Source of the DNA: Candidatus Thalassarchaeaceae archaeon
GTDB taxonomy: Archaea > Thermoplasmatota > Poseidoniia > Poseidoniales > Thalassarchaeaceae
Assembly (NCBI GenBank): GCA_963582685.1
Contig: CAUZSM010000003.1
Coordinates: 1-32,894 of the forward strand
Direction of reading: 5' to 3'
Length of the DNA stretch: 32,894 bases
The notes beneath the pieces were generated by a model. It was not told the origin of the DNA, ran no database searches, and worked only from the letters and a program-made list of their open reading frames with translations. This document shows positions 1,534 through 17,000 of the stretch, piece by piece. Position 1 is the first letter of the stretch, and each line of letters begins with the position of its first letter. A program made the translations under genes and the position numbers.

Positions 1534-2808
1534 ATGGGTCGATGTGTATTGGTGGTCGGTGGAGGAGGCCGCGAGCATGCATTGGCGATCGGCCTTTCCG
1601 AGAGCGATTCGGTAGCCGAGGTCCATGTCGCACCCGGTAATGCCGGCACGGCGAATGTAGCCACCAATCATCAGGTCAGTGATGGTGATGTCGACGCTCA
1701 GGTCGCTCTTGCTCACCGATTGGGTGCAGATTTGGTAGTTGTTGGCCCAGAGGGGCCACTTGTCAAGGGATTAGCCGATGCGTTACGCGCTGATGGCATC
1801 CCCTGCTTTGGCCCTCATTCAGAAGGTGCGATGCTTGAAGGCAGCAAAACTGTGGCGAAATCCACCATGCAGAAACTTGGTGTTCCCACCGCACAAGTCA
1901 TCCGACTCGATTCTAGTTCAGACTTGGATTCTGACCTTGATGAATTCGCACCTCCATGGGTCATCAAGCGTGATGTGCTAGCCGGTGGAAAAGGTGTTCT
2001 CGTCACCGAAGACCGCGACGATGCGCGCGATTTCATCACTTCAAGCATAGATAGTGACGGGTTTGTACTGCTCGAAGAATTTCTCTCCGGTGAGGAAGCG
2101 AGCATGTTGGTGATGATGGACGAATCCGGCTTCCTTGCTCTACCCTGCAGCCAAGACCACAAGCGGGTCGGCGAAGGAGATACCGGATTGAACACAGGTG
2201 GAATGGGGGCATATGCCCCTGCTCCTGTCGCAACTGAGGAAGTCAGAGCACGTGCCATTCGCGAAATTGTTGAGCCAATGCATGCACATTTGTCATCACA
2301 GGCTACACCGTATCGAGGCTGCCTATATGTTGGCCTGATGATTGACGAGAGTGGCGCTCCCAGCGTAGTCGAATTCAATGTCAGATTCGGTGACCCCGAA
2401 ACTCAGGTGACCGTGCCACTGATCGCCAGCGATCTATGCGAATTACTGCTCGCTGTCGCTGAAGGCAGACTCTCATCTTGCGAAACTACATTTCACGATG
2501 CACACGCATTGACAGTGGTGCTTGCCAGTCAAGGATATCCGGGTCCACCGGTCAAAGGACTCCCAATTGGCGGTGAACTCTCTGCACTAGGGGAAACTGG
2601 TTGTTTGGAGGGGTGGGCGTTCGTCCATCACGCTGGAACTGGTGAGGATGAAGATGGGGTACTGATTTCAACAGGAGGTCGGGTGCTTGCAGCAACAGGA
2701 ATTGCCTCCTCACTACATGGGGCAAGAGAACTTGCTTATCAGAAGTTATCAGCCATTTATTTGGAGGGTTCTCATTTTCGAAAGGACATAGGTCACAGAG
2801 CCCTCTAG
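1534..2808 (+). CDS. purD: Phosphoribosylamine--glycine ligase (GAR synthetase)
   Basis: Motifs GGGGREHAL, APGNAG, VVVGPEGPL, LEGSK, LAGGKGV, QDHKRVGEGDTGLNTGGMGAYAP, EFNVRFGDPETQ, GGRVL and FRKDIG. Confidence 0.98.
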   Translation: MGRCVLVVGGGGREHALAIGLSESDSVAEVHVAPGNAGTANVATNHQVSDGDVDAQVALAHRLGADLVVVGPEGPLVKGLADALRADGIPCFGPHSEGAMLEGSKTVAKSTMQKLGVPTAQVIRLDSSSDLDSDLDEFAPPWVIKRDVLAGGKGVLVTEDRDDARDFITSSIDSDGFVLLEEFLSGEEASMLVMMDESGFLALPCSQDHKRVGEGDTGLNTGGMGAYAPAPVATEEVRARAIREIVEPMHAHLSSQATPYRGCLYVGLMIDESGAPSVVEFNVRFGDPETQVTVPLIASDLCELLLAVAEGRLSSCETTFHDAHALTVVLASQGYPGPPVKGLPIGGELSALGETGCLEGWAFVHHAGTGEDEDGVLISTGGRVLAATGIASSLHGARELAYQKLSAIYLEGSHFRKDIGHRAL

Positions 2809-2822
2809 GGGTGACATAGGAA

Positions 2823-2840
2823 AGTGCGATTCGGCGCACT
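2823..2840 (+). terminator. Hairpin after purD (AGTGCG-N6-CGCACT)
   Basis: 6-bp stem 14 nt after the stop codon, with no U-tract. Confidence 0.25.
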
Positions 2841-2876
2841 GTGCCACATCCTCGCGCGCATGCATAAGGCGAACGA

Positions 2877-2882
2877 TTAAAA
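2877..2882 (+). promoter_or_regulatory. Putative TATA box TTAAAA for aglB
   Basis: The only TATA-like run in the purD-aglB spacer. A GAGGGG SD-like site at 2943-2948 precedes ATG 2955. Confidence 0.4.
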
Positions 2883-2954
2883 CAAGGCCTCCGGTGGCGG
2901 CGACGCTGATGAGAGCGTATGCTGTCATCTGAAACCCAAGATGAGGGGACAATA

Positions 2955-5900
2955 ATGGAAGAAGAAGATGTTGTGACCACCAATCGTATTCCGTTCCTCG
3001 GAATGCTCTCAGCACCACTCGTCATCGCAGTAATGCTGTTGACGACCATTGGTCTGACTTGGAAGGTCATAGACTATGATGTAAGCCACTGGAACACCAT
3101 CCTGTTGGCGACTGGCGTCATGCTAGTCGCCGCAGTCCTCGGCAAGGTACCCGGCCTAATCCCATCTGACTCAATCCCTCTCTCACCCGCTTCGAAGTCT
3201 GCTTTGTTCGCTGCGATAATTGCTGCAATCAGCTATGCGATGCTATACTACGACATGTCTCTGCTCGCACTTGCCTTCGGCATCATTGCCGTTGGAGTGC
3301 ACGTGCTAGACAAGGCAGGTTGGCACGAAGAGGAGAACATCCTCGTCGCTGTCGTCGCTGGATTCATCTTTGCGATTCAAGTAGCCGCAGCAGGCCACGA
3401 GTGGATACCTGAAGACTCATTTGCAGGTCAGGCATACAATCTGATTGACATCGAGAGAACGACCACCGTCTTCCTGTTCTTCGGAGCATGGACTGCGATG
3501 ATTATCGACGGAGCAATCCTAGCATTGCTGTTCAGGGGTCGGCTATCCGAGCCCGGAAAAGGGCCTTGGTTCCGAAATTTGGACAATGTTGCTGGTAATA
3601 ATTTCCTACCACTTTACATTGCTTTGGGAATTTGGTGGTGCGCTCACATCGCTGCACTGGTTCAACTGCAAGGATTGGAGAATCCAGATGCTATGTTCCT
3701 AGGAGTACATCTGACCTACATCGGTGCTTTCAGCACTGGTTTGGTATTGCTATTCGTTGCTTTCTGCTGGGCAGAACGGTGGCGCACTTTGGGTGCGGTT
3801 GTTCTGTTGAATTACTTACTATTCTGTGTGGGATCATGGCAATCCAAGGACATGTTTGGCCTTGGCGACGTCGATTTCCTGACTGGAGATATGGGTAACC
3901 TGACTTGGTTCCTGTTGTTCTTCTGGCTCAATGCTGGCATTATTTACCTCGGCTTCGTCAATAAGCTTGGTGATGCCGGTGGGCGTCGCGAACACGGTGG
4001 CGCAAGACAATGGTGGTCTGCAAATTGGTATGGCATTACGGTCGGTGGCGCACTACTAGTCGCCCTAGCAATCCGAACGTTGTGGAATGTTCTGCCTGCA
4101 CTCAACGGCACAGGGCCAGGCGAGTGGGACATGACCGGTGGTTCTGACCCGTGGTACATGAAGCGTGCAATCGACTACATCATCGCGCACAATAGCCATT
4201 TCGTCATTGACATGGACCGTTCTTACCCACTTGGTTCCATCAACCCGCGACCGCCTCTATTCACCTGGACCCTTGCCCTTGCTGGCAAGTTACTCAACCC
4301 ATTCGTAGCGGGTGATGTGAACGAGGCAGCATGGTGGGGTACTACTGCGATGCCGGCAATTTACGGAGCACTCACTGTTCTTCCCATCGCTGCAATGGCT
4401 CACAAGCAATTCGGCAAGGGTGCCGGTGCAACCGCTGCGTGGTTGATGGCACTGATGCCCGGTCACGTTGGTCACTCGACCTTCGCTCTGGCTGACCACG
4501 ACGCTTTTGTCATGCTGTTTACCTCTCTTGGAGTATACTTCTGGATGATTGCGGTCGGTGCGGCCGGCAGCGATAAACTGCTGGAAGATGCACATTGGCA
4601 TCCACGACATTTGGCTCGAGGGATATCAGCAGCATTCCAGTATCGCTCCAAAGCGATGGCCTATTCGATACTGGCTGGTGTCTCATTTGCGACAGTAGCC
4701 CTAGGATGGAAGGGATTCGTCTACATTCTTGCTATTATCTTCGTCGCGTATTTCCTACAGACGTCAGTCAATATGCTGCGTCGCCGCGACAACATGCCGG
4801 TCACCGCGGCGATGATTGTGATGGTGGGAACAGCCTTCCTGCTGCCATTGCCTTTCTATGCCAACCCAGAGTTGTCTCTGCTGTTGGACGCTAGTGGTTT
4901 CCAGCCGATGTTCTACATTCTGTTTGCCGTTCTCGCTAATGGCTGGGTTGTCACAGCATACCGAGACAAGCCGTGGCTGATGGTCATCGTTACCGGTTTG
5001 AGTCTTCTCAGCGTAGTGCTTCTCGTGCTGTGGATGTTGCAGAATGTGTTCAACGTGTACAACGGTTGGGACGTCCTGTTCACAGGTGGTTATTACTTCA
5101 CCAAGAACAAGATATTCGGCACCATTGCTGAGGCGCAAGCACCGAGTCGAGGTATGCTATTCGGTTCGTTCGGACCGATTGTAATGCTGCTCGCACTCGG
5201 CGCGGGAATCGGCGCACTGTGGAGCGGCATTCGCCACAGAAATCATGTACATCTTTTCTTATCAATTTGGACTCTTCTCGGTATCTACATGGCATGGTCT
5301 GCTGGTCGATTCGTGTTCAACGCCACACCAGTGATGGCAGTGATGGGAGCATGGGCAAGCGTGTACATTTGGCGACTCGCTGGTTCACGTGAATTCGTCA
5401 AGACTTGGAGACGAAGCGGCATCAGTACTTCGGGTGCACGCTTCAAGTCTACATACAGGGCTAGCAAGAAGCATCCCGCGGTTCCTGCAGTGCTATTGGT
5501 GTTCATTTTGATGTTCAGCCAGCACGCAATCTATGGAATCGACTCCGGCATACCAAGAGGTGATACCAATGAGAAGCGCATCGACCAGACCTTCTTCGAT
5601 TTGGCTCCAGATGTGATGCGGGCTGATTTGTTCGGTTGGTCATTGATGCCTAATGACCGCGGTGGCAATTCCTACTCAGGCTACGGTGTCGGTGATGAAG
5701 AAGTGACCTCCTGTAGAGGCACATGCTGGTACATGGGTACATTCGGACCTGGTTTCAACGGTCGGTCATGGAATGATGCCTATGATTGGCTTGAGCATCA
5801 GGACGCAGATGAGGACTTCTCGGAGAGACCGGCATTCGTCTCTTGGTGGGATTATGGATTCCAAGCACTTACACAGGGTCAGCACCCGACAGTGGCTGAC

Positions 5901-8900
5901 AACTTCCAGTCAGGTATTCCGGCTGCTGGAAACATGCTGCTGTCCAACAGTGAGCAAGACACCCTCGGGCTATTCATTGGTACTCTTGATGAAGGAGACC
6001 GCCGTTACAAGTTGAACAACGATCCAGATGGATATGAAACCAGTCAGCATACTAATGCGTTTGAGAACGCGATGCGAAGTCACTTCCAGTATTCTACCAC
6101 ATACGACATTTGGATTGATGTGACCACTGCTGGCGATATTGACATTGTAAAGGAGCGTTCGTTCCGTGTCACTGCATCCGCTGATGACGTCATATTGGCT
6201 GAAGGCCATCCAGTCAACGAAGATGGTTCGGTTGCAACCAGCGTAACGCTATATCGATTGTACGAAGACTATGTGTTGCTTGATGAATTCACCTCAGAGA
6301 GCGAGATGATTCAGGCGTGGGATGTAAACAGCAAAACCGATTGGGGCGAGGATGGAATCGGTACAACCACGTCGCACTACATCATCGGTGATTATTGGTA
6401 TACCAAGGATATGGTCGAAGATTTCAACGATGTCGGTACATCACTTCATCGACAGAACGCGCGCCTTGCCATGGCACGAGAGTTGCTGATTAACACCATG
6501 TCAATGGATGACATGGTTGCGCTGTTCCATGACCTCACTTCAATCGATTACGAGGTCGTCAACTATGATGCACCACCCGGTGAGACCATAGTTAGGAATC
6601 ACGACATCCGTTACTTTGCAGTTGATAATCGGCTATACCCGATTGGTGGATACCAATATGCGGAATCTTCGTTCCACTACGGCAATCCGACCGGCATTTT
6701 CTACGCCCCGACAACTCTAGCTGGTCTTGACCCCAACAACTACCTCGAAACCGTGTACATCACTCAGCGTGGTGACCGACCAGAGCAGGAGATGACATCA
6801 GCTGAATACGAAGAAGCATACATCGCCGATATTCTTGCCAGTCAAAGCGGGTCTGGTGCGGACATCATCACTTTGACTGACGTTCGCGTAGACCAGCAGG
6901 AAGCATTCTTCGATACGATGATTGCACGTACCTACGTCGGCTACGGTGGTCCTCATCTTGGACTTCAGGGCCGTCTTGCTCAGCCTGCTCAGCATTTTGG
7001 TGGAAGGGGAACCCCCGAGACCGCACTGGCCTATGCACCACCTCTACCCGGTGCGATGATGCAACACTTTGTGCTAGCAAATTGGTATGACCCCACTGCA
7101 CTGGAGAATGAACTCTCAGTTGGCTCTGCCAATACCGGTGTCAAGATACTGAAGTACTACTCTGGTGCAACTCTGGAGGGCGATGTCGTCCTTGGAGACC
7201 TTGGAGTGGTTCCCAATGCCAAGATTCTCATCGAGCGCGACGCGTTCAGTGGAGAGGAGGTCGAAGCAGAAGACGGTACTGTAACCGATAGGGACCCGCG
7301 TACCTACTGGATCCCGATAGGTGCCACACAGGCTGATGACGAAGGCCACTACTCATTCAGAGCACCTGCTGGAAAAATAAGAGTCAGCGCATTCATGGGT
7401 CTCTCTGACCTTGATTCTGCTCGTGTTGACCTAATTTCGTCTGGGACTTCCGGCTCAGCCTCTTGGGTTACCGACATATTGCAGGATGGTAATGATGACC
7501 GCGAGATCAATCCGATAACCGGAATCCTCGCCAACGTCAGCGGAGCCACTTGGCTCGGTGAATCAGTCATCAATATTTCAGCGGTTGATGGACACAGTGA
7601 CGGCGAGGCGGTGTTGAGCAGCGATGTCACTGTAGAAGCCAGTGGTGCAACAGGTCGCATCACATGGGAAGGGCACGAGTCCTTCAATGGCGATCCTATT
7701 GCCAATCTGGAAGTTGACATCATCAACATCTGGGGTGAGACCGTCCAGCCACCATACACCATCACTACCTCAACCGGTTTGATTGAGGGAGACCGCGAAT
7801 TCCGTGGCACCGGTGAAGTGACCTTCACTGGTCCGGGTTTTGTGGAATCCGATGGAGTTGTGACTGCAACTGACTTCACTGGTACATACACTCGAGATAT
7901 CCTGCACGAACATTCGTTCACAGGCAGTGGAGATATCACCGGACGTGGGACACTCGTAGGTACTTTGGACGAGAATGCAACCGCCGTTGCCGATACTTGT
8001 GACAATGGTACTGTGCCCGGAGGTTTCGATGCCTGCTACGATGATAATGAACAGCACTGGATTATCGATGGTACTGCTATTGGCGCTGCGGGCCGCTTTA
8101 CTGCTAATGGCACATCTCAATTCTTATCGGTGATGAATCGTCAGACTTTTGTCGGCGCGGGAGTGTTCACTATTGATGCAAGCAATGAGTCCCTTGAAAC
8201 TTATGGAACCATCAATGGAACTGGTCTATTCAGTGGAACTGGAATCTACAGCGGGCCCATGGTTGAGCCCGGAACTTTCCACCTCGTGGATGCGATTCCA
8301 GGAGTTTACCACGTGCGTATTAATTTCCCCAATGGTGAGACACGACAACTACCAATGCCACTTGAAATCGGATTGGAGCATTTGACTGACATCGAACTAT
8401 GGTTACCGGGTTCATATGTACACGGTGTGGCAGAGACAGTTGACGGTGATTTTGTTCAGAGCACCTTCGAGTTGCTGGAAGAAGATGACAGGGACGCCGA
8501 GCCTACCGGGCTCTGCGAGGATGTTCTTTGGGCGCCCTGCCTGATAGAGAGTGATGAGAACGGCAGCTTCGGCTTCGGGCCGTTGACTGAAGGTGACTTC
8601 ATACTGACTTTGGATATGGATGATGATGGGTTCAATGAGTACGAATCTACACAAATCCGAATCATGGGAGATTCTGCTCAGAATGTCAGCGCTAGTAATG
8701 TAAACCACATCGTGACGATGCATGACCTCAACATCTCTCTGTACAAACGGGTTGGAGATGACGTGGAGATTGTCGAAGGACAAAACTTGACTTTCACAAC
8801 CCCGTTGATGCCGATAGAGATTGTTGCCCGAGATAATGGCAATGGCTCATACAATGTTGAGTTGCCTATGGGTGAGTGGATAGTCAACAGCAGTCTTGAC

Positions 8901-11900
8901 GAGAATTATCTGATTTACGAGGAGCTAGTCATCGAGGACGAAGACATTGATTTGGACCTGTATTACCAACAGAGTGCATGGTTGAATGGCACAGTTGTGC
9001 ACGAGTCTGAGAAGGAAGGTGACCCTCCGGTCGGATATGATAATCTGGCGGTGAGATTCCAATGGGGTGGAATCACCACGGTTGAATACACCGAGACTTT
9101 CACAGCAGATAATGGCACTGAGATTGATGGCTTCTTCAGCATCAGATTACCTGTTGGAGTTGGCGTTAACATCACGACTGAAACAGGGATTAGCCACGAC
9201 ATTGCGGGTGTCCATATCGATGTGTTAGAAGATAACCCAATGCTGAATTTGGTTCCGGAGGAAGCATACAACATCGCTGGTCATCTATTCCTATACCGTG
9301 ACACCAACCCATACACCAGCAATATTCCGGGATGGATGATGAATCCAATTTTTATCGAGGCCACATCGGATAATCTCACTTGGCAATTATTCATCGACAA
9401 CCAAGGTAAGTTCACTGGAATGTTGCCCTATGGTAACTGGAGCATTACTGTGAATGACCCCGTATTCAATTCTGAAACAATCGTTCAATACATGTTTGAG
9501 GACAACAACAGCGTGCAACTCATCGCGCATCCTGCCAAAATCCCAGTTGTCGTGACAACTTACCTCGACCATTCACTGGATTCCAATATATCGAATGGGA
9601 CCTTATTGGGCATCGATTTCAGTATCATTCCTACATCCTTTGGTTCAGGTGAACGCGAGAACATCACCGCTGATGATATTCGATGGGAGAATGGGACGAT
9701 TTCGTTGTTACTTGAGCCGGGAACATTCGAATTTGAAACCGAGTTACCTGACGTCAGTAATGGAACTGATTACAATCGGCAGATTGCAACATCGGAAACT
9801 GAATTGGGGTTGATGATTGGCAACGAGACTTGGAATCTTGAAATTGGTTTGCTACCCGAGTGGAGAATCAGTGCACAGTTGAATAACGAGTCTGGTGAAG
9901 GATTGGCCAACTGGCCAGTCCGCTTCGAGGAGAGTGACGGTGTTCGCACCTTCACACGAAACATGGACGAGAACGGTAGCCTGCTCGCCTATCTGCCTGA
10001 AGGTGAATGGATAGTCATCGTAGACCCATTCATTCAGGGTGAAGGCGTGATGGAGGAGTTGCGCAGCACATTATCAATCGATGCTGCGAGTAGTGGAATA
10101 CAGTGGACGACCACTGAATCTGCCCACGTCAATATCACATTGCGTGAGATCGAGATGAACGAGAATCTCAGTAGTTTTACTATCAGTGCTGTCAGCGAGG
10201 ACGGATATGGTGAGATGATTCTCGGCCCTACCGATGACACCGGTAGCATCGATGCACGTATCTATCCCGGGACGTGGACCTTCAGTATGAACCGGACTGA
10301 CAACAATATGCGCTGGGTACTGGAGAATGTTACCGTCACTCTAGCTGCAGGTTGGGCTAATGATAACCTCACTCTCGAAGCCAACCGCTATGTCACAGTT
10401 GGTGGAAATCTATTCTGGGATCTTGATGGCGATGGTGGTTGGGACTTCGATGAAGGCATTGAGGATGCAACTGTTGAACTGGTCGGGGGTAACTTCGGCC
10501 CAGTTAACATGACCACCACGCAATACGGCACTTGGACACATTTTGTCCCAGTACACGCGAATTACTCGGTCACTGCAATCAAGGAAGGCTTCAGTCCTGA
10601 GACTGTAATTTACGAGATTGAAGCGGTGGCGAACTCTACCGACATGATGCTGCTTGCGGGCAGTGTGAATGTCGAAGGTAACCTGACCTACATCATTCCT
10701 GAACTATGGGATGACATAGCAGAACGCATGGAGATTGTATTGCTGCCGTATGGTGAACTTGACAGAGAGCCCCTAACTCCAGATAAGACCCTTGACAATG
10801 GCAGTTGGACCGGTCACTGGTCCACCGCTATCGAGCCCGGCAAGTGGGTTGTATACGCCTACGATGCCACTGGACACTACAATGTGACCCTCGGCCTTCT
10901 CGACGCGTCGATTGGAGATGGCGGCAATCTTGACCTAATCGTCTCTGAGGGTGGCCGTCTCTCCTTTGGAACTTCTTGGTTTGACTTCGATGGTGTTGAG
11001 CACCATCTTGCAGAGACAGATGTGCCGAATGCTCCGATGACAACAGCACCGGAACTCATCGTTGATGCTGGGTCTGACATCAAGTGGAATGTGACAGTCG
11101 ATGAGGACGGCCGATTTGACATGCTGTTGCCAGCGGGCAGTTACTCGTTTGACTCTACTTTCTGGACGGTAGAACGGGGCATAGACATGCGCTACTCTGG
11201 TGGCCTATCTTCAACCTCTGCTCCTATGCAAGATTCACCTGAGGATTCTCAAATTGAGTTCAACCGAAGGCTTGACCACTCCCTAGAGTTCAACACTGGA
11301 AATACCACGAATAGCACCTACGACGTGGAAAATGACTGGCACCTGATTGAGGTTGCTGGTGATGATGTTGAGTACAAGATTGTCGAGATGGATATTGAGG
11401 TGACCTACGCCGGTAACGAGGCAGTCGACGAGTATGTGTTCAACGCGGTGCTGAATGGTTTTGAGGCAGAATACTGGACAATTGAAGCATACAACGGAAC
11501 GGATGCAAATGGAACCGAGGAGTGGCTGACAAATGTGGTATTCACACTGGGTCTAGAGGATGACCTCTTCGAAACCATGCGAGTCAGAATTATCCCGGCG
11601 AATATGACCACAGCCCGTACCTATGATAGTGGGCATTCGATGATTGTCGAACTTTCACACATGGACGGCTCAAGCAGTGAGCATCACATCACTCTGAAGG
11701 TGCCGCAGTTTTACGGATTTGAATTGGAGACCGACCTAACGGACTACGTGATTGGTATCCAGCCGGGTACTGAAGAGATTATCCCGTTGATGTTCTCCAA
11801 CACCGGCAATGGCGATGACACCTATACAGTAAGTATCGATGACAGCGAGATGCCGGAAGATTGGGCCGCCGCTGGTGCAGATATCATACCCATCGGTGCG

Positions 11901-12485
11901 GCTAGCATACAATCATTCTCAATGAGTCTGCATGCACCAAGCAACACCGAGGATGTATCATTCAGCTTGTGGATAACGGTAACTAGCGAGGGCGGCGATG
12001 AATACCCTGTGATTGAAATCCCGGTCGAAGTTGCTCTACCCAGCCTGCAGATATCTGATGCTGGAGTGCTGTCCGGTGCCCAGAAGGGCTACGCAGTCGC
12101 CAATGAGATTAACACCTTCTTCGTCACAGTTGAGAATACTGGAATTGTCGATGCAGACATCATCACCGTGTATATCTACAGTGAAGACGGAGATGAATTG
12201 GCCAGCGCCTCAGGCCCGGTGTCTAAGCAAGATTCGTACTCATTCCAAATGGACGTCGACACCACTGGCCTAGGAATAGGCAACCATCACTTTAACTTCG
12301 TAATCAACTCAACCGGACTGGTGCTTCAGGAAGAGCCTGACGACTACACTATGACCATCAATATCCAGAAGTCGGATTCTGATGGAGTAGAATGGTGGAT
12401 TGGCGTAGTTGTATTGTTCATCTTCGTACTGCTGCTATACGGTGGCTGGAAGTTCACCGCACGCCGACCAGGGCAGCCGTTCTGA
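2955..12485 (+). CDS. aglB: Giant STT3/AglB oligosaccharyltransferase with extra N-terminal membrane domain and long C-terminal beta-sandwich (carboxypeptidase-regulatory-like/SdrD-B/CARDB-like) extension ending in a TM anchor
   Basis: The STT3 motifs occur in the expected order: GSDPWY (Asp at 4146), ADHD (4494-4502), TIAE (5121-5132), WWDYG (5844-5858) and VADNFQ. A repetitive acidic beta-rich region follows, ending WWIGVVVLFIFVLLLYGGWKFTARR. The start is placed at ATG 2955 because of the GAGGGG site; ATG 2919 is an alternative. Confidence 0.93.
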   Translation: MEEEDVVTTNRIPFLGMLSAPLVIAVMLLTTIGLTWKVIDYDVSHWNTILLATGVMLVAAVLGKVPGLIPSDSIPLSPASKSALFAAIIAAISYAMLYYDMSLLALAFGIIAVGVHVLDKAGWHEEENILVAVVAGFIFAIQVAAAGHEWIPEDSFAGQAYNLIDIERTTTVFLFFGAWTAMIIDGAILALLFRGRLSEPGKGPWFRNLDNVAGNNFLPLYIALGIWWCAHIAALVQLQGLENPDAMFLGVHLTYIGAFSTGLVLLFVAFCWAERWRTLGAVVLLNYLLFCVGSWQSKDMFGLGDVDFLTGDMGNLTWFLLFFWLNAGIIYLGFVNKLGDAGGRREHGGARQWWSANWYGITVGGALLVALAIRTLWNVLPALNGTGPGEWDMTGGSDPWYMKRAIDYIIAHNSHFVIDMDRSYPLGSINPRPPLFTWTLALAGKLLNPFVAGDVNEAAWWGTTAMPAIYGALTVLPIAAMAHKQFGKGAGATAAWLMALMPGHVGHSTFALADHDAFVMLFTSLGVYFWMIAVGAAGSDKLLEDAHWHPRHLARGISAAFQYRSKAMAYSILAGVSFATVALGWKGFVYILAIIFVAYFLQTSVNMLRRRDNMPVTAAMIVMVGTAFLLPLPFYANPELSLLLDASGFQPMFYILFAVLANGWVVTAYRDKPWLMVIVTGLSLLSVVLLVLWMLQNVFNVYNGWDVLFTGGYYFTKNKIFGTIAEAQAPSRGMLFGSFGPIVMLLALGAGIGALWSGIRHRNHVHLFLSIWTLLGIYMAWSAGRFVFNATPVMAVMGAWASVYIWRLAGSREFVKTWRRSGISTSGARFKSTYRASKKHPAVPAVLLVFILMFSQHAIYGIDSGIPRGDTNEKRIDQTFFDLAPDVMRADLFGWSLMPNDRGGNSYSGYGVGDEEVTSCRGTCWYMGTFGPGFNGRSWNDAYDWLEHQDADEDFSERPAFVSWWDYGFQALTQGQHPTVADNFQSGIPAAGNMLLSNSEQDTLGLFIGTLDEGDRRYKLNNDPDGYETSQHTNAFENAMRSHFQYSTTYDIWIDVTTAGDIDIVKERSFRVTASADDVILAEGHPVNEDGSVATSVTLYRLYEDYVLLDEFTSESEMIQAWDVNSKTDWGEDGIGTTTSHYIIGDYWYTKDMVEDFNDVGTSLHRQNARLAMARELLINTMSMDDMVALFHDLTSIDYEVVNYDAPPGETIVRNHDIRYFAVDNRLYPIGGYQYAESSFHYGNPTGIFYAPTTLAGLDPNNYLETVYITQRGDRPEQEMTSAEYEEAYIADILASQSGSGADIITLTDVRVDQQEAFFDTMIARTYVGYGGPHLGLQGRLAQPAQHFGGRGTPETALAYAPPLPGAMMQHFVLANWYDPTALENELSVGSANTGVKILKYYSGATLEGDVVLGDLGVVPNAKILIERDAFSGEEVEAEDGTVTDRDPRTYWIPIGATQADDEGHYSFRAPAGKIRVSAFMGLSDLDSARVDLISSGTSGSASWVTDILQDGNDDREINPITGILANVSGATWLGESVINISAVDGHSDGEAVLSSDVTVEASGATGRITWEGHESFNGDPIANLEVDIINIWGETVQPPYTITTSTGLIEGDREFRGTGEVTFTGPGFVESDGVVTATDFTGTYTRDILHEHSFTGSGDITGRGTLVGTLDENATAVADTCDNGTVPGGFDACYDDNEQHWIIDGTAIGAAGRFTANGTSQFLSVMNRQTFVGAGVFTIDASNESLETYGTINGTGLFSGTGIYSGPMVEPGTFHLVDAIPGVYHVRINFPNGETRQLPMPLEIGLEHLTDIELWLPGSYVHGVAETVDGDFVQSTFELLEEDDRDAEPTGLCEDVLWAPCLIESDENGSFGFGPLTEGDFILTLDMDDDGFNEYESTQIRIMGDSAQNVSASNVNHIVTMHDLNISLYKRVGDDVEIVEGQNLTFTTPLMPIEIVARDNGNGSYNVELPMGEWIVNSSLDENYLIYEELVIEDEDIDLDLYYQQSAWLNGTVVHESEKEGDPPVGYDNLAVRFQWGGITTVEYTETFTADNGTEIDGFFSIRLPVGVGVNITTETGISHDIAGVHIDVLEDNPMLNLVPEEAYNIAGHLFLYRDTNPYTSNIPGWMMNPIFIEATSDNLTWQLFIDNQGKFTGMLPYGNWSITVNDPVFNSETIVQYMFEDNNSVQLIAHPAKIPVVVTTYLDHSLDSNISNGTLLGIDFSIIPTSFGSGERENITADDIRWENGTISLLLEPGTFEFETELPDVSNGTDYNRQIATSETELGLMIGNETWNLEIGLLPEWRISAQLNNESGEGLANWPVRFEESDGVRTFTRNMDENGSLLAYLPEGEWIVIVDPFIQGEGVMEELRSTLSIDAASSGIQWTTTESAHVNITLREIEMNENLSSFTISAVSEDGYGEMILGPTDDTGSIDARIYPGTWTFSMNRTDNNMRWVLENVTVTLAAGWANDNLTLEANRYVTVGGNLFWDLDGDGGWDFDEGIEDATVELVGGNFGPVNMTTTQYGTWTHFVPVHANYSVTAIKEGFSPETVIYEIEAVANSTDMMLLAGSVNVEGNLTYIIPELWDDIAERMEIVLLPYGELDREPLTPDKTLDNGSWTGHWSTAIEPGKWVVYAYDATGHYNVTLGLLDASIGDGGNLDLIVSEGGRLSFGTSWFDFDGVEHHLAETDVPNAPMTTAPELIVDAGSDIKWNVTVDEDGRFDMLLPAGSYSFDSTFWTVERGIDMRYSGGLSSTSAPMQDSPEDSQIEFNRRLDHSLEFNTGNTTNSTYDVENDWHLIEVAGDDVEYKIVEMDIEVTYAGNEAVDEYVFNAVLNGFEAEYWTIEAYNGTDANGTEEWLTNVVFTLGLEDDLFETMRVRIIPANMTTARTYDSGHSMIVELSHMDGSSSEHHITLKVPQFYGFELETDLTDYVIGIQPGTEEIIPLMFSNTGNGDDTYTVSIDDSEMPEDWAAAGADIIPIGAASIQSFSMSLHAPSNTEDVSFSLWITVTSEGGDEYPVIEIPVEVALPSLQISDAGVLSGAQKGYAVANEINTFFVTVENTGIVDADIITVYIYSEDGDELASASGPVSKQDSYSFQMDVDTTGLGIGNHHFNFVINSTGLVLQEEPDDYTMTINIQKSDSDGVEWWIGVVVLFIFVLLLYGGWKFTARRPGQPF

Positions 12486-12516: not shown

Positions 12517-12613
12517 TCCCAGCAATATGGACGTTGGACGTAGCCTACGCACCCAGCCCCGTTCAGCGAAGGGGAGATGAACCTAGGTGGGAACCCCACC
12601 CCGAGGCAGAGCC

Positions 12614-13882
12614 ATGTCCACGGGCCCATACCGTCATCTTGAGTACCTCCCTGAGCCCGAGGACCCACGAATGCTCACCGCAATCGACCCCGACGCACCG
12701 GGATACCCTCCAGAAGCATATGGCGTGGGCGTTGAGCACGCTGAGGCATGGCGTCAAGCCACTCGAGAGGCTATGAGCCGGCCAGAGAAGCAACGTCCCT
12801 TTGGCATCTTCATCGTGATAACACTGGTTGCTGTATTGTTAATCTCCTATCCCTGGGTAGTGGATTTTCTTGGACCAACATTCACTCCTGACTCACAGTG
12901 GGCCTACGATGACACGGGTATCACCGAATTGCAGGAAAACTACGGGTTGACTGGGGCCGGTGTGCGCATATGCATCGTCGACACAGGCGTGGACCTCAGT
13001 CATCCTGACCTAAGTGGTATCAATCTGGTAGCGTACAAGGATTTCATTGCAGGGGATGATTCTACCGTGCAAGACCGTGGTACGGATATGCACGGCACCA
13101 TGATGGTGGGGATTCTGGCTGCAGACGGACACTTGAGGGGTGCTGCGCCAGGAGCCGATATCATCGTCGCTGCTGCACTGGGTTCTGATGGAACTACACA
13201 ATCTGAATCGATTGTTGCTCAAGCTGTACTGTGGTGTTGGTCAGAAGCTGAAGCCGATATCATCAGCCTTTCCTTGGGTGGAGACCCAGACCCGGAGAAT
13301 CCTCTTGGTTCAGAAACAGCAAATGCTGTTCGAAAGGCGTTGGAGAATGGAGTATTTGTTGTGGCTGCTGCAGGAAACTCCGGTGGGGCTGGAACCGAGG
13401 TCACTGATGTGTCCGTTCCAGCCAATGTTGACGGAGTGATTGCTGTGGGGGCGATTGAGCGCAGTGGTGACTTGTGGAACAAGACGGCGACAGGTTCGGC
13501 AACTGAGGGTGCAGAAGGAGACATTCGTGAGGAGCCACATCAGAAACCTGAGGTGGTAGCCCCAGGTGTGGGCATCATTTCCACCTCCTCGACTGCATTG
13601 GCCATCCCGTATTCAAGCAGTACCGGCACGTCTGATGCGACAGTCTTCGTGACCGGCGCTCTGGCTCTTATCTTAGAGCGGCATGGATCAGATTTGACTC
13701 GCGCAGGTATTGATGCCGACCGTGCAGACATCGATTTGGTCAAGCAAGCCCTTGCGGATTCATGCGTCAGAAGTGATTTGCAGGGCGACTCGCACCACCT
13801 CCGCTATGGCTACGGTTCTCTTGACGCAATTGCCTGGGAAAGGGCAGTAGCAGATGCGATTTCTGCACGCGGGCCGGAATGA
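12614..13882 (+). CDS. Membrane-anchored S8 (subtilisin-family) serine peptidase
   Basis: Catalytic triad motifs IVDTG, HGTMMVG and GTSDA (13625-13639), oxyanion motif AAAGN, KPEVVAPG and C-terminal YGYG. One N-terminal TM (FGIFIVITLVAVLLISYPW). The start is uncertain (GTG 12587 or ATG 12614). Confidence 0.92.
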   Translation: MSTGPYRHLEYLPEPEDPRMLTAIDPDAPGYPPEAYGVGVEHAEAWRQATREAMSRPEKQRPFGIFIVITLVAVLLISYPWVVDFLGPTFTPDSQWAYDDTGITELQENYGLTGAGVRICIVDTGVDLSHPDLSGINLVAYKDFIAGDDSTVQDRGTDMHGTMMVGILAADGHLRGAAPGADIIVAAALGSDGTTQSESIVAQAVLWCWSEAEADIISLSLGGDPDPENPLGSETANAVRKALENGVFVVAAAGNSGGAGTEVTDVSVPANVDGVIAVGAIERSGDLWNKTATGSATEGAEGDIREEPHQKPEVVAPGVGIISTSSTALAIPYSSSTGTSDATVFVTGALALILERHGSDLTRAGIDADRADIDLVKQALADSCVRSDLQGDSHHLRYGYGSLDAIAWERAVADAISARGPE

Positions 13883-14088: not shown

Positions 14089-17000
14089 ATGGAAGAATCA
14101 CACCGCCGAAAGAGCCTGCTACTGAGCCTTCTCTTTGTATCGAGCATGTTGATAGGACTCGTTGGAGTAGTCCCGACAGCAATGGCCAGTAACGAAACTC
14201 AGGCTGGAACAATAAGTGGCCCTGAAACATGGACTGGAACGCACACTCTTACTGGAGATGTGGTAATTGCTGCTGGAGCCACACTCATCATTCAGCCAGG
14301 AACTACTATCACCATGCCCAATGGGACTCACATCGATGTTAGAGGCGCAATGTGTGCTGGCGACGTCGCTTGTGGTGCTAATGGGATGGCCAGCAATAGC
14401 AGCCGTATCATCTTCAATTGGAATTCACCGGCTAATGATCAGGCCAACGGCTCGTGTTACGGGTTGTTCCCGATAGGTGGTTCACCTCAGCACTGGAATA
14501 GAGACCCTTCTTGTTATGAGGGAATTTTGATGCGTAATACCGTCGATATTGGTATGACCAAGTTGAACCACGTCACAATCAGTAATGCCTACGGAATGCC
14601 ACGCTGGGTCAATGAAATAAATCAGGTTCGTTATGGTGCACTTGTTCTAGAAGGTGCAAGCCCTACAATCACGGGCATCAAATTCACTGACATCAACACT
14701 ACCAGCCTGCTGGTTCTCGACCTTGCTGCACCTACTATTCTTGGTGGGGAATTCACCACAGGGAAGGATGCGACTGAACTGGTTGGCTCAGCCATCCAGT
14801 CATATGGTGCAGGTAGCGCTCTAAGCCCACTAATCATCAACTACGCCATCTTTTCTGGAACTAGCAATGGCTGTGCGCAAGAAGACGATGGTCGTCACGT
14901 GCTTTGGGGTGAGAAGTCGTTTGTCGCCATCACCGGAGCAGTAGTCGGTAGTGCCGGCGCCTCAGCTGGTGACTATGGTATGAGATTCGATGACTCGGCG
15001 GGTTTTGTTCGAAATTCTTACTTCCATACCGATTGCAACGGAGTGGACCTTAACGACAAGCGAGTTGTCGGAAATACTCCGTACCAGATGTTTGTAGAAA
15101 ACAATCAGGTTACCACCGAGGAACGCTCACCACTTACCGCATTCAATCATGCATGGGTGGCCTTCAACAACAACATCATCGAGGGCGCAAGCGATGGTTC
15201 TGGCATTCAGATTTCCTCGTCAGAAGTTGAAATCAACGGAGGCACAATTGGTCCAATTGGTGGGTGGAATGGAATCTGGTCTATCGGCGAATCTGATGTA
15301 TCGGTAATTGGCACATCAATTCAGGGCACTGCCAAGGAGGCAATCATCGCAGGCGAATACCATTATGGTGACGGTGGTTGGAGTGGAATCCCAACACCTC
15401 AGAAGAATCGAATGTACATGAAGAATGTCGACATCAGCGGCACTGGTGGGGAATGCACGAGTGAGAAAATTTGGCGTACCATCATTGGACCTAGCGGCGA
15501 GGAATTTACCTGCCCTGCTATCCACGCTTATCGCACTTCATTGACCTTGATTGACAGTGATGTGAATTGGGGAGGTACTGATGCAGACGTCATCCGTGCG
15601 ATTGGTTCCATCCTCGATGTGCGCGATAATGACTTGAACGGCTCTGGTATCGGCGCTCGTATTGTCAATCACAATACTTGGCCTGGACCAGACTACGGCA
15701 GCCTTGCTTTCTTCTCTATGAACCGCTGGTCTTCCAGCATTCAGCAAGGGTATAACATCACCAAGAGTAGCGTAACTGTGCAGTCTGAATCCATTCAGAA
15801 TACTGCTCCCGGAGTTTACCCGGTCAGCCTTTCTTGGCCTGACACAGAGGCGAGTGACGAATCCTTCAATGGTTGGAACTCTGCGGTATATTTGACTCAG
15901 TCAAAGGTTTGGCCTCCGCAAGAATTCCCGTTGGCCATGGAAATCGTCAACAATTCGACGACCTTCACCTTCGCCAACCTTACCAATTTGGATAACTCCA
16001 AGATTTTCATCGACACATCTCCAGTGATGTGGGCAGTGCAGATTCGCAAGGCCGAAATCGTTCGCTTCAGAACCATTGTCGATGGTGTTCGCGTGAGTGA
16101 TGCTTCGGTGTTGATTGAGGATGCACACGGCAGAGATTTGTATTCTCTGACTACTGATAGCCAAGGCTGGACGCCTGAAATATCGTTACCGAGCGACTTC
16201 CACTTAGATTTCCGTGGACTGCAAGGTGGAGATAATCCAGATGGTTTCGCCACCGATGCACTGGAGAATTCGTGTTCTGATGGCGTGGATAATGATGGAG
16301 ACCTGCTCTATGATGCGCAGGACCCAGATTGTGCACAGGGAGCAGGAACTCGCGAGATGTCGAAGTATTACGTGACCGCGTATCGTTTCGGTAAGGGATA
16401 CAAGAATTACAACTTTATTCTGGCTGACCAAACCGGAGTACTTGCTGAGATTGTGGCTCTAGAAAATAAGGCTCCGAGCATTACTATAACTCATAATGAC
16501 GGCCATTCGTTCAAGCGTGTCATCAATTTCACTGGCTCCGCCCACGACGGTGATTGGGCTGGTATCTATGGCTCCAATCAGATGGACGATGAGGACCGCA
16601 ACACCCTTGCTCAGTGGGATGAACAGGGTATCGTAGAACAGGTGCAGATCAAGGATCCATTCACCAGTGATTGGGTTGATATGCGATTGGCCGTTGACAC
16701 TAGCAACTCTGGTGGAGAGGTGACATACAATAATCACCCATTCCGCAATTGGTACTTCTCGTACGACATGAGTGACCAGCCGGAAGGAGACTACACCTTT
16801 GAGTTTCGTTCCTTTGACGGTATCGACTACTCTCCGATTATCACTCGTACTATCAAACTGAACACTGAACCGCCGACAATTTGGGTGGATTCACCTGCTG
16901 ATGGCACCGTCATCGAAGACGGTATCGTCCACTTCTCAGGTCGTGCCAGTGATGCCTACAACGGAATCTTTGGCTCGGATATCGGTTCAGTATGGTTCGA

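Follow-up and report, generated by a model that had tools for sequence, protein, structure and literature searches.

Archaeal N-glycosylation has AglB as its signature enzyme. The studied members of the family, as tabulated in Table 3 of PMC5131992, have 754 to 1054 amino acids (aa) and 13 to 15 transmembrane helices, and they end in a free soluble domain. The residue roles in the Archaeoglobus fulgidus enzyme (AfAglB; D47, D161/H163 and E360) and the subunits of the eukaryotic oligosaccharyltransferase (OST) are described in PMC7226087. A second protein of relevance here is NOMO of the endoplasmic reticulum (ER), whose architecture and spacer role are treated in PMC8327139 and PMC11169918; according to the former, NOMO is rod-like and its length sets the width of the ER lumen.

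The window that we analysed, a stretch of 32,894 nucleotides from a Poseidoniales (Marine Group II) genome, encodes an AglB of quite different proportions, in which the STT3 enzyme is flanked by an extra membrane module on the N-terminal side and by a long, membrane-anchored array of domains on the C-terminal side. This giant, doubly anchored AglB is a real but unstudied design. We found no description of it in the literature searched, on AglB, STT3 or oligosaccharyltransferase of marine group II, Poseidoniales, Thermoplasma, Thermoplasmata, Thermoplasmatota or Aciduliprofundum and on S-layers and glycosylation in marine group II, where the AglB survey of Nikolayev et al. 2020 may mention such lengths; nor is it described in the accessible parts of PMC9723583, PMC3750248, PMC5155288 and PMC11407970. 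Below we discuss the integrity of the gene, its parts, their distribution in the phylum, and how the whole may function.

Integrity of the gene

The gene is placed as follows:

2955..12485, + strand: giant AglB gene, 3176 aa and stop, starting at the ATG at 2955.

The reading frame is uninterrupted from 2919 to 12485 (+ strand), and would yield 3188 aa from an upstream in-frame ATG at 2919. The ATG at 2955 matches the start of database form P0002 (3176 aa, 100% identity), and the Met it encodes is the first Met of the 31 aligned homologs, in an invariant column. Positions in the protein are nevertheless given in the 3188-aa numbering (ATG 2919) throughout. It is the largest frame of its genome, and the only STT3/AglB gene that a Pfam STT3 search detects there (the genome is 93.5% complete, in 184 contigs).

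The earlier note had read the locus as a single giant AglB of ~3,180 aa, and other genomes bear this out. Among the matches listed, 114 of 120 homologs have 3141-3298 aa, with 37-100% identity over ~100% coverage. In all 76 Poseidoniales genomes that hold the N-terminal module, it shares one frame with STT3; 59 of these frames have at least 2965 aa, and the 17 shorter ones stop at contig ends (15) or at stretches of N (2), leaving no true split. The long frame is also present in closed contigs. Two independent seawater metagenomes covered 30/30 and 27/30 bins of the gene with zero indels. Purifying selection acts on all parts of the protein, dN/dS against a same-genus genome being 0.095, 0.056, 0.046, 0.10, 0.098 and 0.081 for six successive parts. 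The three-part fusion is thus confirmed as genuine. Two RNA libraries yielded 4 and 6 short contigs, covering 7 and 6 of 30 bins, with DNA carry-over possible. A scan for bacterial-type promoters and terminators stayed at chance level (12 found versus 12.8 expected, and 5 versus 7.4, respectively).

The catalytic part

The enzyme proper and its external core comprise the following features:

4029..5534, + strand: STT3 transmembrane domain, aa 371-872, the catalytic membrane part (PF02516; aligns with residues 4-443 of 5GMY/3WAJ).
4146..4157, + strand: DPWY, aa 410-413, D410 being the counterpart of AfAglB D47 (alignment to solved AglB-L).
4494..4502, + strand: DHD, aa 526-528, counterpart of AfAglB D161-H162-H163, metal site (alignment).
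5121..5132, + strand: TIAE, aa 735-738, E738 being the counterpart of AfAglB E360 (alignment).
5535..7139, + strand: external catalytic core and conserved block, aa 873-1407, ~530 aa (conservation 0.7-0.87).
5844..5858, + strand: WWDYG, aa 976-980, pocket for the +2 Ser/Thr of the sequon (alignment, AglB C-terminal domains).
5997..6428, + strand: variable insertion within the core, aa ~1027-1170, ~140 aa (columns ~150-265 of alignment A4).

The STT3 domain has 13 helices and matches Pfam STT3 (PF02516) over aa 409-807 at 58.6 bits, above the cut-off of 24.5. All four motifs align with GGNDPWY, DHH, TIAE and WWDYG of A. fulgidus AglB-L, so that the core first described from the window as intact is indeed so, and they are invariant in 32 sequences (DHD occupying columns D514, H515 and D516 of alignment A1). 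The position of AfAglB R154 is occupied by histidine. The match to TIGR04154, a model of the archaeosortase A system-associated STT3 subfamily, covers model positions 4-477 of 831 and scores 191.4 bits, below the cut-off of 450, and we do not assign the protein to that subfamily.

Around WWDYG, the external core can be aligned with 3VU0 and 3VGP, the C-terminal domains of AfAglB-S. The solved structures align no further than the WWDYG region, after which comes a conserved block, kept across Thermoplasmatota (BLAST, alignment A4). In this block, when the DK or MI motif that completes the Ser/Thr pocket was sought, an invariant VDxRL(F/Y)P was observed. The core contains no sequons (3.5 expected). 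Its insertion is present only in the three Poseidoniales rows of A4, coincides with a gap between the BLAST blocks against other families, and shows a dip in conservation to 0.46-0.49. The AglB_L1 peripheral domain (PF18079), which a 928-aa form (L021) possesses, was not detected in the giant AglB by Pfam scan. The genome also encodes eight GT2 genes and a Wzx-type flippase candidate.

The N-terminal membrane module

The first addition precedes the STT3 domain:

2955..4028, + strand: extra N-terminal membrane module, aa 13-370 (hydropathy; start of the AglB-L alignment).

Solved AglB-L aligns only from profile position 353, leaving ~355 additional residues at the N-terminus, in agreement with the ~350 aa of extra membrane protein proposed before. 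Read by hand, the hydropathy profile gives about ten helices, and the positive-inside rule places both ends of the module in the cytoplasm. Its loops carry conserved motifs on both membrane faces (alignment). The module is restricted to Poseidoniales, being present in 75/75 of their genomes versus 0/45 genomes of the same class outside the order; by family, the counts are 25/25 (f1), 50/50 (f2), 0/43 (f3) and 0/2 (f51). A search of 1.84 billion representatives returned 35 matches. There was no consistent Pfam match in 12 sequences, and no match in the PDB to profile positions 1-352. Two possible origins were rejected by hhalign: a duplication of STT3 helices (probability 0.2%) and kinship with the N-terminal extras of families f23, f12, f28 and f18 (at most 0.5%).

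The C-terminal array and its anchor

Four features follow the core:

7140..11618, + strand: array of ~12 transthyretin-like domains of the CarboxypepD_reg/NOMO type, aa ~1408-2900 (motifs; Pfam matches of homologs).
11664..12338, + strand: two pre-anchor Ig-like domains, aa ~2916-3140 (choice-of-anchor T / NPCBM_assoc / CARDB / DUF11 type).
12381..12449, + strand: C-terminal transmembrane anchor, aa ~3155-3177 (hydropathy).
12450..12482, + strand: basic cytoplasmic tail KFTARRPGQPF, 11 aa with a final F (hydropathy, alignment).

The ~1,750 aa of tandem beta-sandwich-like domains in the earlier note are better divided into the external core (aa 873-1407, ~530 aa) and the array in the wider sense (aa 1408-3150, ~1750 aa), and the beta-sandwich nature of the latter is only indirectly confirmed. 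The hallmark motif of the array was located in nine places, with three more found by eye. Pfam models of beta-sandwich domains gave no match at E<=0.1 in the giant AglB itself, and the CarboxypepD_reg (PF13620) match at 10452-10613 scored 21.4 bits, under the cut-off of 32.3. The domain was recognized, however, in 14/14 homologs, in 13 of them above the cut-off, and in all long AglB forms of other families. The pre-anchor domains match choice_anch_T at 30-36 bits, below the cut-off of 70; matches to this model were seen in 10/17 anchored forms, and homologs show NPCBM_assoc (5/14) and CARDB or DUF11 (3/14). The domain types first guessed, CarboxypepD_reg, SdrD_B and CARDB, were all found in homologs by Pfam scan. 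Recent tandem duplication within the array was rejected: internal comparison gave no more than two weak matches, at 34% and 56% probability, and the domains are old and diverged.

The array is acidic (net excess of 228) and crowded with sequons. Between aa 1451 and 3150 there are 45, versus 16.0+-3.5 in shuffled sequences, with none of 2000 shuffles reaching 45. The density is 2.65 per 100 aa, where the median for the genome is 0.33 and the 99th percentile lies at 2.64; the proteome is itself rich in sequon-bearing surface proteins. Over 31 homologs, 26 sequon columns are kept in at least 50% and seven in at least 90%. The enrichment points to a potential for N-glycosylation, with occupancy predicted. 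Conservation is 0.53-0.75 near the core (aa ~1180-1800) versus 0.37-0.59 in the distal array, and the first array domain of Poseidoniales has an acidic insertion of ~23 aa that other families do without.

The hydrophobic helix at 3156-3174 is the sole one beyond aa 872 and is found in 31/31 aligned homologs. Given the helices on the N-terminal side and this single C-terminal one, sequence logic supports the earlier proposal that the extracellular region is tethered at both ends. All 31 homologs end in PF or AF. The giant AglB is the only large frame of the genome with a transmembrane helix and a '...PF' ending; one other frame, of 235 aa, ends similarly, and we rejected the tail as a general sorting signal. 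Models of sorting signals found no match in the last 250 aa, there is no PGF-type motif before the helix, and PF09721 (exosortase family) gave no match in the genome, a weak negative, as the control was positive only in M. jannaschii.

Distribution in Thermoplasmatota

The array and anchor extend well beyond Poseidoniales. They are homologous and collinear in 14/18 loci of other families and in 63/66 named Thermoplasmatota loci; the anchor is present in 16/20 loci across the phylum. BLAST matches to other families have ~21% identity and are collinear up to the C-terminal end, and Pfam scans find the same domain types recurring in their arrays. On sequence comparison, array and anchor are shown to be inherited from a common ancestor of most Thermoplasmatota AglBs. 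The C-terminally extended AglBs that had been mentioned for Thermoplasmata therefore exist, as forms of 2070-2760 aa, and the transmembrane anchor first described as new is present in the window but is not new to the gene. Of the added parts, the N-terminal module alone is new and restricted to Poseidoniales.

The anchored AglBs of other Thermoplasmatota have the same parts in the same order as the giant AglB: the STT3 domain, the core, a transthyretin-like array rich in sequons, a CARDB/NPCBM_assoc/FixG_C-like Ig domain, one helix and a tail of basic character. Their chains are shorter by 400-1100 aa, and lack the N-terminal module, the core insert, the '...PF' ending and the S8 protease neighbour discussed below. 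Their arrays match Pfam far better (5-7 stretches of CarboxypepD_reg), the Poseidoniales array having diverged. An example is a 2081-aa protein of Aciduliprofundum sp. MAR08-339 (P0157), named by NCBI 'putative membrane protein, required for N-linked glycosylation'; further anchored forms come from metagenome-assembled genomes labelled Methanomassiliicoccales, DHVE2 and Thermoplasmata.

The usual AglB of a whole phylum is thus two to three times longer than those studied and membrane-tied at both ends, and its largest version is the biggest gene of an archaeal group among the most abundant in the surface ocean. Aciduliprofundum and Methanomassiliicoccus are cultured genera, and shorter homologs in relatives of cultured organisms make the ideas below on the role of the array testable.

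Possible functions

On balance, and with a slight lean only, we favour the interpretation that the giant AglB is a catalytically competent AglB and, at the same time, a heavily N-glycosylated, doubly tethered, NOMO-like surface arch. The array would lie outside the cell, and could receive N-glycans at ~45 sites from its own catalytic site, or from that of a neighbour, while being threaded out beside it. As both ends of the array stay in the membrane, the result would be a flexible, acidic, glycan-covered arch, and by this geometry each enzyme molecule would also help to build the surface coat or serve as a spacer over the membrane. The role of spacer may be likened to that of NOMO, a beads-on-a-string protein setting distance in the ER. 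Only Poseidoniales have the N-terminal module, the '...PF' tail and, directly downstream, a gene for a membrane-anchored S8 protease. These three are additions of that lineage, candidates for docking of the tail or of the protease, or for handling of the lipid carrier.

The protease invites a different reading, in which the giant AglB is a precursor: one chain would be glycosylated in cis and then cut by the S8 subtilase, or by another protease, into an AglB of normal size and a separate, C-terminally anchored surface glycoprotein. The neighbour in question is

12587..13882, + strand: membrane-anchored S8 subtilase gene, 101 bp downstream of the giant AglB (Peptidase_S8 match).

It lies directly downstream on the same strand in all 32 evaluable Poseidoniales genomes, a strict conservation compatible with cleavage of the giant AglB. 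The protease shows a single helix, at aa ~74, and a catalytic domain predicted to be outside, and its best-scoring model, below the cut-off, is the membrane-tethered processing protease mycosin. The acidic insertion of the first array domain could form an exposed loop, and the pre-anchor domain with its anchor resembles free-standing surface proteins, as the choice_anch_T matches suggest. The array and anchor, however, are equally conserved in families without an adjacent S8 gene (none in 80 other named Thermoplasmatota loci, nor in 17 of a further other-family set). Moreover, CarS, PurD and Big_7 are likewise syntenic, so that the adjacency may only reflect conserved gene order, and no cleavage motif is known. 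Nor was a separate array candidate found downstream of three short AglB forms, or as a gene of its own in five short-AglB genomes with the window array as query, an empty result that carries little weight. We consider cleavage of this kind unlikely.

The earlier note had offered two roles for the fused parts, that of accessory subunits or a substrate-holding scaffold, and that of a structural envelope component. In the former, the N-terminal module would dock the Sec translocon or handle the lipid-linked glycan, and the array would tether large nascent surface proteins near the active site. The higher conservation of the core-proximal array hints at a job near the enzyme, the many giant surface proteins encoded in the genome are potential substrates, and the loop motifs of the module are conserved on both membrane faces; a tethering role has also been suggested for NOMO, in PMC11169918. 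But Pfam, PDB and sequence searches relate the module to no known subunit, flippase or component of the translocon, a separate flippase candidate is encoded elsewhere in the genome, and 45 sequons of its own would be needless for a scaffold. We rate this proposal as quite improbable; given the 45 sequons of an acidic array, many of them conserved in position, a structural envelope component appears to be the better fit.

That the locus is an assembly chimera, a read-through of separate genes or a pseudo-enzyme with STT3 as a mere anchor is hardly credible: the genome is fragmented and the TIGR04154 score is under its cut-off, but other genomes repeat the same frame in 59 long versions, closed contigs contain it too, independent metagenomes are free of indels, every part is under purifying selection with catalytic motifs invariant, and this is the sole STT3 of a genome rich in sequon-bearing surface proteins.

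The favoured reading, of an enzyme that is also a glycosylated surface arch, can be carried further, although we regard the extension as doubtful. The AglB of Thermoplasmatota, including lineages without a wall, could be a principal structural element of the cell surface, self-glycosylated in cis and forming an arch that determines how thick a glycocalyx or pseudo-periplasm is; the Poseidoniales module, '...PF' tail and S8 protease would then close or remodel the arch. If this is true, the enzyme and its main product are one molecule. Marine Group II cells are uncultured, and to our knowledge nothing is known of their envelope. An array serving as a self-made glycoprotein coat or spacer would bear on how cells without a classical wall build a surface, on the first thing that viruses and grazers encounter at a Marine Group II cell, and on the ways in which enzyme and substrate can become one molecule.

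Comparison with known systems

The closest described enzyme is A. fulgidus AglB-L (3WAJ/3WAK/5GMY), whose solved chain has 875 aa. Both proteins have a 13-helix STT3 membrane domain followed by an external core after its last helix, and they can be aligned at the first acidic motif, at the D-x-D/H metal motif, at TIxE and at WWDYG; the reaction is presumably the same as that of studied AglBs. The giant AglB differs by the addition of ~355 N-terminal aa, the ~140-aa core insert, ~1750 C-terminal aa and a 24th helix, by His at the R154 position, and by the lack of a detected PF18079 domain.

Eukaryotic OST (STT3 with Ost1/2/3/4/5, Wbp1 and Swp1) likewise combines STT3 with additional membrane helices and lumenal beta-rich domains. 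In the giant AglB, however, the extra parts are covalently fused, and PDB searches with the Poseidoniales and Thermoplasmata profiles matched no OST subunit.

S-layer-type archaeal glycoproteins are acidic, sequon-rich strings of Ig-like domains whose terminal part is a hydrophobic helix with basic residues. The giant AglB shares with them the acidic sequon-rich array, a pre-anchor domain of the choice-of-anchor kind and the terminal helix, but has no signal peptide, begins as a polytopic enzyme and lacks a PGF-type motif.

[quoted passage not shown] Both have ~12 non-cytoplasmic transthyretin/Ig-like domains, one C-terminal helix and a short cytoplasmic tail. Against the profile of the Thermoplasmata forms, NOMO2 (9C7V_B) scores an E of 1.3e-24, second only to AglB, while the next array protein has 0.0024; against the Poseidoniales profile its E is 0.011. 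The Pfam models NOMO_5th and NOMO1-like_9th match arrays of other families. The similarity is at the level of repeats and is non-collinear, one profile stretch matching NOMO2 at three places. NOMO carries a signal peptide and exists as a free type I protein, whereas the array of the giant AglB is fused to a polytopic enzyme; with neither collinear full-length homology nor a free type I form, the array does not belong to the NOMO family proper. A NOMO-type array beside STT3 also makes a poorly understood ER protein approachable from the prokaryotic side.

An Intact AglB in a Single Frame

The giant AglB is encoded by an open frame of 3188 aa (2919..12485, +), to which residue numbers refer here, and this is the largest stop-to-stop frame of its genome. 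The ATG at 2955, chosen as the start in the earlier note, is also the start of an identical database protein (P0002, 3176 aa) and is in register with the invariant first Met in an alignment of 31 homologs. The STT3 motifs that the note had reported were each recovered in the translation:

aa 410, DPWY
aa 526, DHD
aa 735, TIAE
aa 976 (motif start), WWDYG

The Pfam STT3 model matches aa 409-807 (58.6 bits, cut-off 24.5), and NCBIfam TIGR04154 matches aa 375-867 with 191 bits, under its 450-bit cut-off. Residue by residue, GGSDPWY, DHD, TIAE and WWDYG align with GGNDPWY, DHH, TIAE and WWDYG of Archaeoglobus fulgidus AglB-L (5GMY/3WAJ), where the counterparts are described as D47, D161/H163, E360 and the pocket for the +2 Ser/Thr (PMC7226087). 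A histidine aligns with R154 of the A. fulgidus enzyme. The STT3 match is the single one in the assembly, which is 93.5% complete. Judged from its sequence, the giant AglB is an intact and conserved AglB, the sole one in its genome, with all catalytic motifs and a predicted enzymatic activity.

Among 8000 database proteins scored, 276 matched with E ≤ 0.001; 114 of the 120 listed are 3141-3298 aa long, with 37-100% identity and about 100% coverage, and the remaining six are 2614-2953 aa, two of them labelled partial. Of the 121 genomes examined in this class, 76 carry the N-terminal module: 25/25 of the window's family, 50/50 of its sister, and 0/43 and 0/2 of two other families. It is in frame with the rest in all 76, the frame being at least 2965 aa long in 59; the 17 shorter frames end at a contig edge (15) or break exactly at runs of N (2). 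The stop codons that might have divided the gene in relatives were sought among the 76 module-bearing genomes, and no natural split was found. In a comparison with a genome of the same genus (amino-acid identity 93.7%), the dN/dS values are 0.046 (core), 0.056 (STT3 helices), 0.081 (anchor and tail), 0.095 (N-terminal module), and 0.10 and 0.098 (array, by halves). Two RNA libraries contained four and six short, near-identical contigs spread over all three parts; because such libraries may carry over DNA, this is only a hint that the gene is transcribed. A study of transcription in coastal Marine Group II lists an 'oligosaccharyltransferase', which may be this gene, among those more abundant when a Thalassarchaeaceae genus was active (PMC9723583).

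Membrane Topology and the N-Terminal Module

The alignment with solved AglB-L starts no earlier than profile position 353, so that about 355 N-terminal residues are extra, in agreement with the additional membrane part of ~350 aa first noticed. Hydropathy, read by hand with the positive-inside rule, predicts about 10 helices in this module, with both ends cytoplasmic. The STT3 helices would extend to aa 872, after which the sole hydrophobic stretch is a helix at aa 3156-3174, followed by KFTARRPGQPF. The proposal that the extracellular region is tethered at both ends therefore stands as a prediction from hydropathy. The C-terminus matched none of the sorting-signal models, and a search of the genome, for which the control was weak, found no exosortase-family gene; the terminal helix is thus most simply read as a permanent anchor. 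In all 31 aligned homologs the tail consists of basic residues closed by PF or AF; AglBs of other families terminate in plain basic residues.

Across 1.84 billion representatives, a complete HMMER scan turned up the N-terminal module in just 35 proteins, ten of which are 3146-3228 aa long and match at the N-terminus; the other 25 (91-1992 aa) were taken for fragments, and the one checked, P0145, runs on into STT3. No Pfam family recurred in the module among 12 sequences. Comparison rejected the idea that it is a copy of the STT3 helices, and also a kinship with the 215-240-aa extension of AglBs in families f23 and f12. The latter (L009 aa 1-215 in f23, L010 aa 1-240 in f12) are 41% identical to one another. 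As they are unrelated to the Poseidoniales module, AglB has acquired N-terminal additions on more than one occasion.

Anatomy of the Core and Array

The 31 homologs are well conserved (0.7-0.87) in the STT3 domain and near WWDYG. Conservation drops in a variable insert (aa ~1027-1170), recovers in a block spanning aa ~1190-1490, and stays at about 0.45-0.55 from there to the C-terminal end. When three Poseidoniales rows were aligned with 17 loci from other families, the insert was confined to the three, and the block (IRYFAVDxRLFP...GIFYAP...FY..M..R.Y.GY...P.PG) was common to the phylum. The first beta-sandwich domain begins directly past it, at aa ~1408. In Poseidoniales this domain carries an acidic insertion of ~23 aa (aa ~1440-1465, window ~7236-7310) that is absent in the other families and may be an exposed loop.

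The earlier note suggested scanning for CarboxypepD_reg and CARDB. The scan was positive in the homologs: CarboxypepD_reg was found in 14/14 (13 above cut-off; aa ~1800-1900, 2390-2460 and 2490-2570), NPCBM_assoc in 5/14 (aa ~2920-3000) and CARDB or DUF11 in 3/14 (aa ~3020-3090). The window's own AglB had no Pfam beta-sandwich match at E ≤ 0.1, and of the two families only a 21-bit CarboxypepD_reg match, at 10452-10613; a choice-of-anchor-T match covers aa 2916-3037 (30-36 bits). D..G.f...lP.G.y.v, the hallmark of transthyretin-type domains, is found at aa 1473, 1772, 1973, 2160, 2257, 2350, 2439, 2626 and 2728, and three further copies were spotted by eye, from which we estimate about 12 transthyretin-type domains plus two Ig-like domains before the anchor. 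The domains resemble one another weakly (hhalign 34% and 56%); they are old and individually conserved, not the product of a recent repeat expansion.

The array is rich in N-x-S/T sequons. The stretch aa 1451-3150 has 45, whereas shuffling its residues 2000 times gave 16.0 ± 3.5 and never as many as 45; the core (aa 873-1450) has none, against 3.5 expected. All 31 homologs are alike in this: their arrays carry 32-64 sequons, and the 480 residues past WWDYG carry 0-5. At 2.65 per 100 aa, the array lies at the 99th percentile of the 716 genome frames of at least 300 aa (median 0.33), eight of which equal or exceed it. Sequons are kept by at least 50% of the homologs in 26 alignment columns and by at least 90% in seven, despite an array identity of merely 36-46%. 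Conserved sequons lie at positions 1524, 1537, 1681, 1751, 2211 and 2445 of homolog P0003, to which about 13 is added for the 3188-aa numbering. Acidic residues of the array outnumber basic ones by 228. The sequon excess, the acidity and the basic tail fit an extracellular, heavily N-glycosylated segment, the glycosylation being predicted.

Spread Through Thermoplasmatota

STT3 matches were found in 349 of 401 Thermoplasmatota genomes. Among 150 listed of the 392 matches, frame lengths fall into tiers of ~900-1050, ~1130-1450, ~2070-2850 and ~3120-3300 aa, the last containing Poseidoniales only. In genus g24 of family f5, 0/11 genomes had a match; those listed are ~99% complete, and this lineage may be without AglB altogether.

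The survey of AglB length and architecture called for earlier revealed long anchored forms in many families. Twenty loci were fetched, one from each of 20 genomes: 16, representing 16 families (frames 2073-3183 aa), have a C-terminal helix and basic tail, one is truncated by the contig end, and three (928, 1298 and 1427 aa) lack a terminal helix. It is likewise missing from eleven additional frames (926-1607 aa) of ten further families, one of them obscured by masked bases. Eighty named public records were retrieved with the core alignment, labelled Thermoplasmata, Methanomassiliicoccales, DHVE2 group, Aciduliprofundum sp., Proteinoplasmatales and similar, with two oddly labelled contigs. Of their 66 frames closed C-terminally, 62 pass the helix-plus-basic rule and one more does so by eye, which leaves three short frames (568, 1075 and 1717 aa) that do not. 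The anchor had been thought new in this gene, a view at odds with its presence in 16/20 loci and 63/66 closed frames. In family f7, the last 30 residues of the giant AglB of locus L013 contain, by eye, a PGF-like motif just ahead of the helix and an RRRR stretch; this C-terminus passed none of the sorting-signal models, and an archaeosortase might act on the array in that family.

BLASTP of the giant AglB against the long forms gave three collinear blocks: STT3 with WWDYG (30-35% identity), the core (23-29%), and array matches of ~21% that reach the very C-terminal end (e.g., query 2433-3182, subject 1705-2413). Arrays of other families match CarboxypepD_reg (2-7 stretches), SdrD_B, NOMO_5th and NOMO1-like_9th strongly, and their long forms have a CARDB, NPCBM_assoc or FixG_C Ig domain immediately ahead of the helix. 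The 1300-1430-aa forms have two array-type domains and lack the helix, and the canonical AglB_L1 domain is present in the 928-aa form. The collinear matches to the C-terminal end, the shared domain types and the widespread anchor indicate, at the sequence level, that array-plus-anchor is ancestral to a large part of Thermoplasmatota and not particular to the window's gene. An STT3-core tree made by a quick method places the Poseidoniales clade, fully supported and on a long stem (1.34), among anchored forms.

Neighbouring, Surface and Glycan Genes

Other genes were noted in the window and in its genome:

12587..13882 (+), S8 subtilase gene, directly downstream of AglB
18611-21130 (+), STAND-type NTPase between surface-protein genes, with an HTH-like N-terminal region and C-terminal TPR repeats
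21131-21613, 21613-23907 and 23934-24965 (-), three consecutive ORFs, each starting with a single N-terminal helix
26012-31693, TSP3-repeat protein, 1893 aa
Contig C7, 14482-15234 (-), Wzx-type flippase candidate (Polysacc_synt)
Contig C7, 17687-18193 (+), GT2 gene near the flippase candidate, on a contig other than AglB's

The last of the three ORFs has a weak DUF7289 match, and together they may be a pilin-like or surface-structure gene set; with the TSP3-repeat protein, they give the window the look of a cell-surface gene island. A set of giant type I surface proteins of 1272-1750 aa is encoded on other contigs of the genome (C12:12942, C23:10856, C25:12364, C24:5068, C108:1 and C29:6443). 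They have a helix 90-160 aa from the end and an acidic cytoplasmic tail in which DDDG.EWW.D..G.WWY recurs. In the window, the Big_7 protein of 1477 aa (14089-18522) starts with a signal peptide, has its helix at aa 1381 and ends in a related acidic tail containing W. This type of tail may be a common cytoplasmic docking motif of surface proteins.

Possible Role of the Tethered Array

We lean toward the view that the giant AglB is an active enzyme joined to a glycan-covered, doubly tethered loop that serves as a coat element or spacer. The chain past helix 13 would be threaded outward alongside its own active site, so that the array sequons could be modified in cis or by adjacent molecules; insertion of the last helix would follow and leave a glycan-covered loop. 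With ~14 beads of ~3 nm each, an estimate based on figures for NOMO, its reach would be roughly 20 nm, sufficient for a coat element or spacer. GT2 genes and the Wzx-type flippase candidate lie elsewhere in the genome, and those on C7 likely belong to a glycan assembly cluster feeding the giant AglB.

Alternatively, the giant AglB could be a precursor cleaved by the S8 protease, which we consider unlikely. The S8 gene directly follows AglB in Poseidoniales: 39 genomes were covered by both the module and S8 searches, and in 32 of these the best ortholog shares contig and strand with AglB, at 9.6-9.8 kb past the AglB start; in the other seven AglB is truncated by the contig end. No S8 gene was found near AglB in other lineages (0/80 named loci and 0/17 further loci). 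The protease is predicted to keep ~70 residues in the cytoplasm and to cross the membrane with a single helix, its catalytic domain lying outside, and its top model is a mycosin, scoring below cut-off. CarS, PurD and the Big_7 surface protein are also syntenic with AglB, and part of the adjacency is thus mere conserved gene order. An accessory or scaffold function of the fused parts, as first proposed, seems quite unlikely. When contigs from two other seawater metagenomes were mapped along the frame, they covered 30/30 and 27/30 bins with eight substitutions and no insertion or deletion. An artefact is barely credible.

Comparison With Known Systems

The enzyme family is known, and the proteins are public under generic names: 'STT3 domain-containing protein', 'carboxypeptidase regulatory-like domain-containing protein', 'glycosyltransferase family 39 protein' and 'peptide transporter'. 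The 2081-aa form of Aciduliprofundum sp. MAR08-339 is named 'putative membrane protein, required for N-linked glycosylation'. Nothing in the literature searched describes an AglB that is giant or doubly anchored, although the survey of Nikolayev et al. (2020) or paper supplements may mention one; the phylum-wide array-plus-anchor is, as far as we have seen, undescribed. To it the Poseidoniales AglB adds a predicted membrane module that is without detectable relatives. Studied AglBs have 754-1054 aa and 13-15 helices according to Table 3 of PMC5131992.

Against solved structures, a profile of 24 Thermoplasmata giants matched A. fulgidus AglB-L first (E 3.6e-29) and human NOMO2 of the BOS complex second (9C7V_B, E 1.3e-24, 88.8 bits); the array protein after NOMO2 reached just E 0.0024. 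The Poseidoniales profile matched NOMO2 weakly (E 0.011). One profile stretch matched three places of NOMO2, which argues for a likeness of a repeated domain pair, not collinear homology. NOMO is described as a type I protein with 12 Ig-like beads and a single helix at its C-terminus; in purified form, NOMO1 is a flexible ~24-nm rod with eight visible beads, and lengthened NOMO widens the ER lumen (PMC8327139). It is part of the BOS complex of the multipass translocon, for which PMC11169918 mentions a suggested tethering role of NOMO. The layout of NOMO and of the giant AglB array is thus alike; the array of the window's protein, however, is fused to an enzyme.
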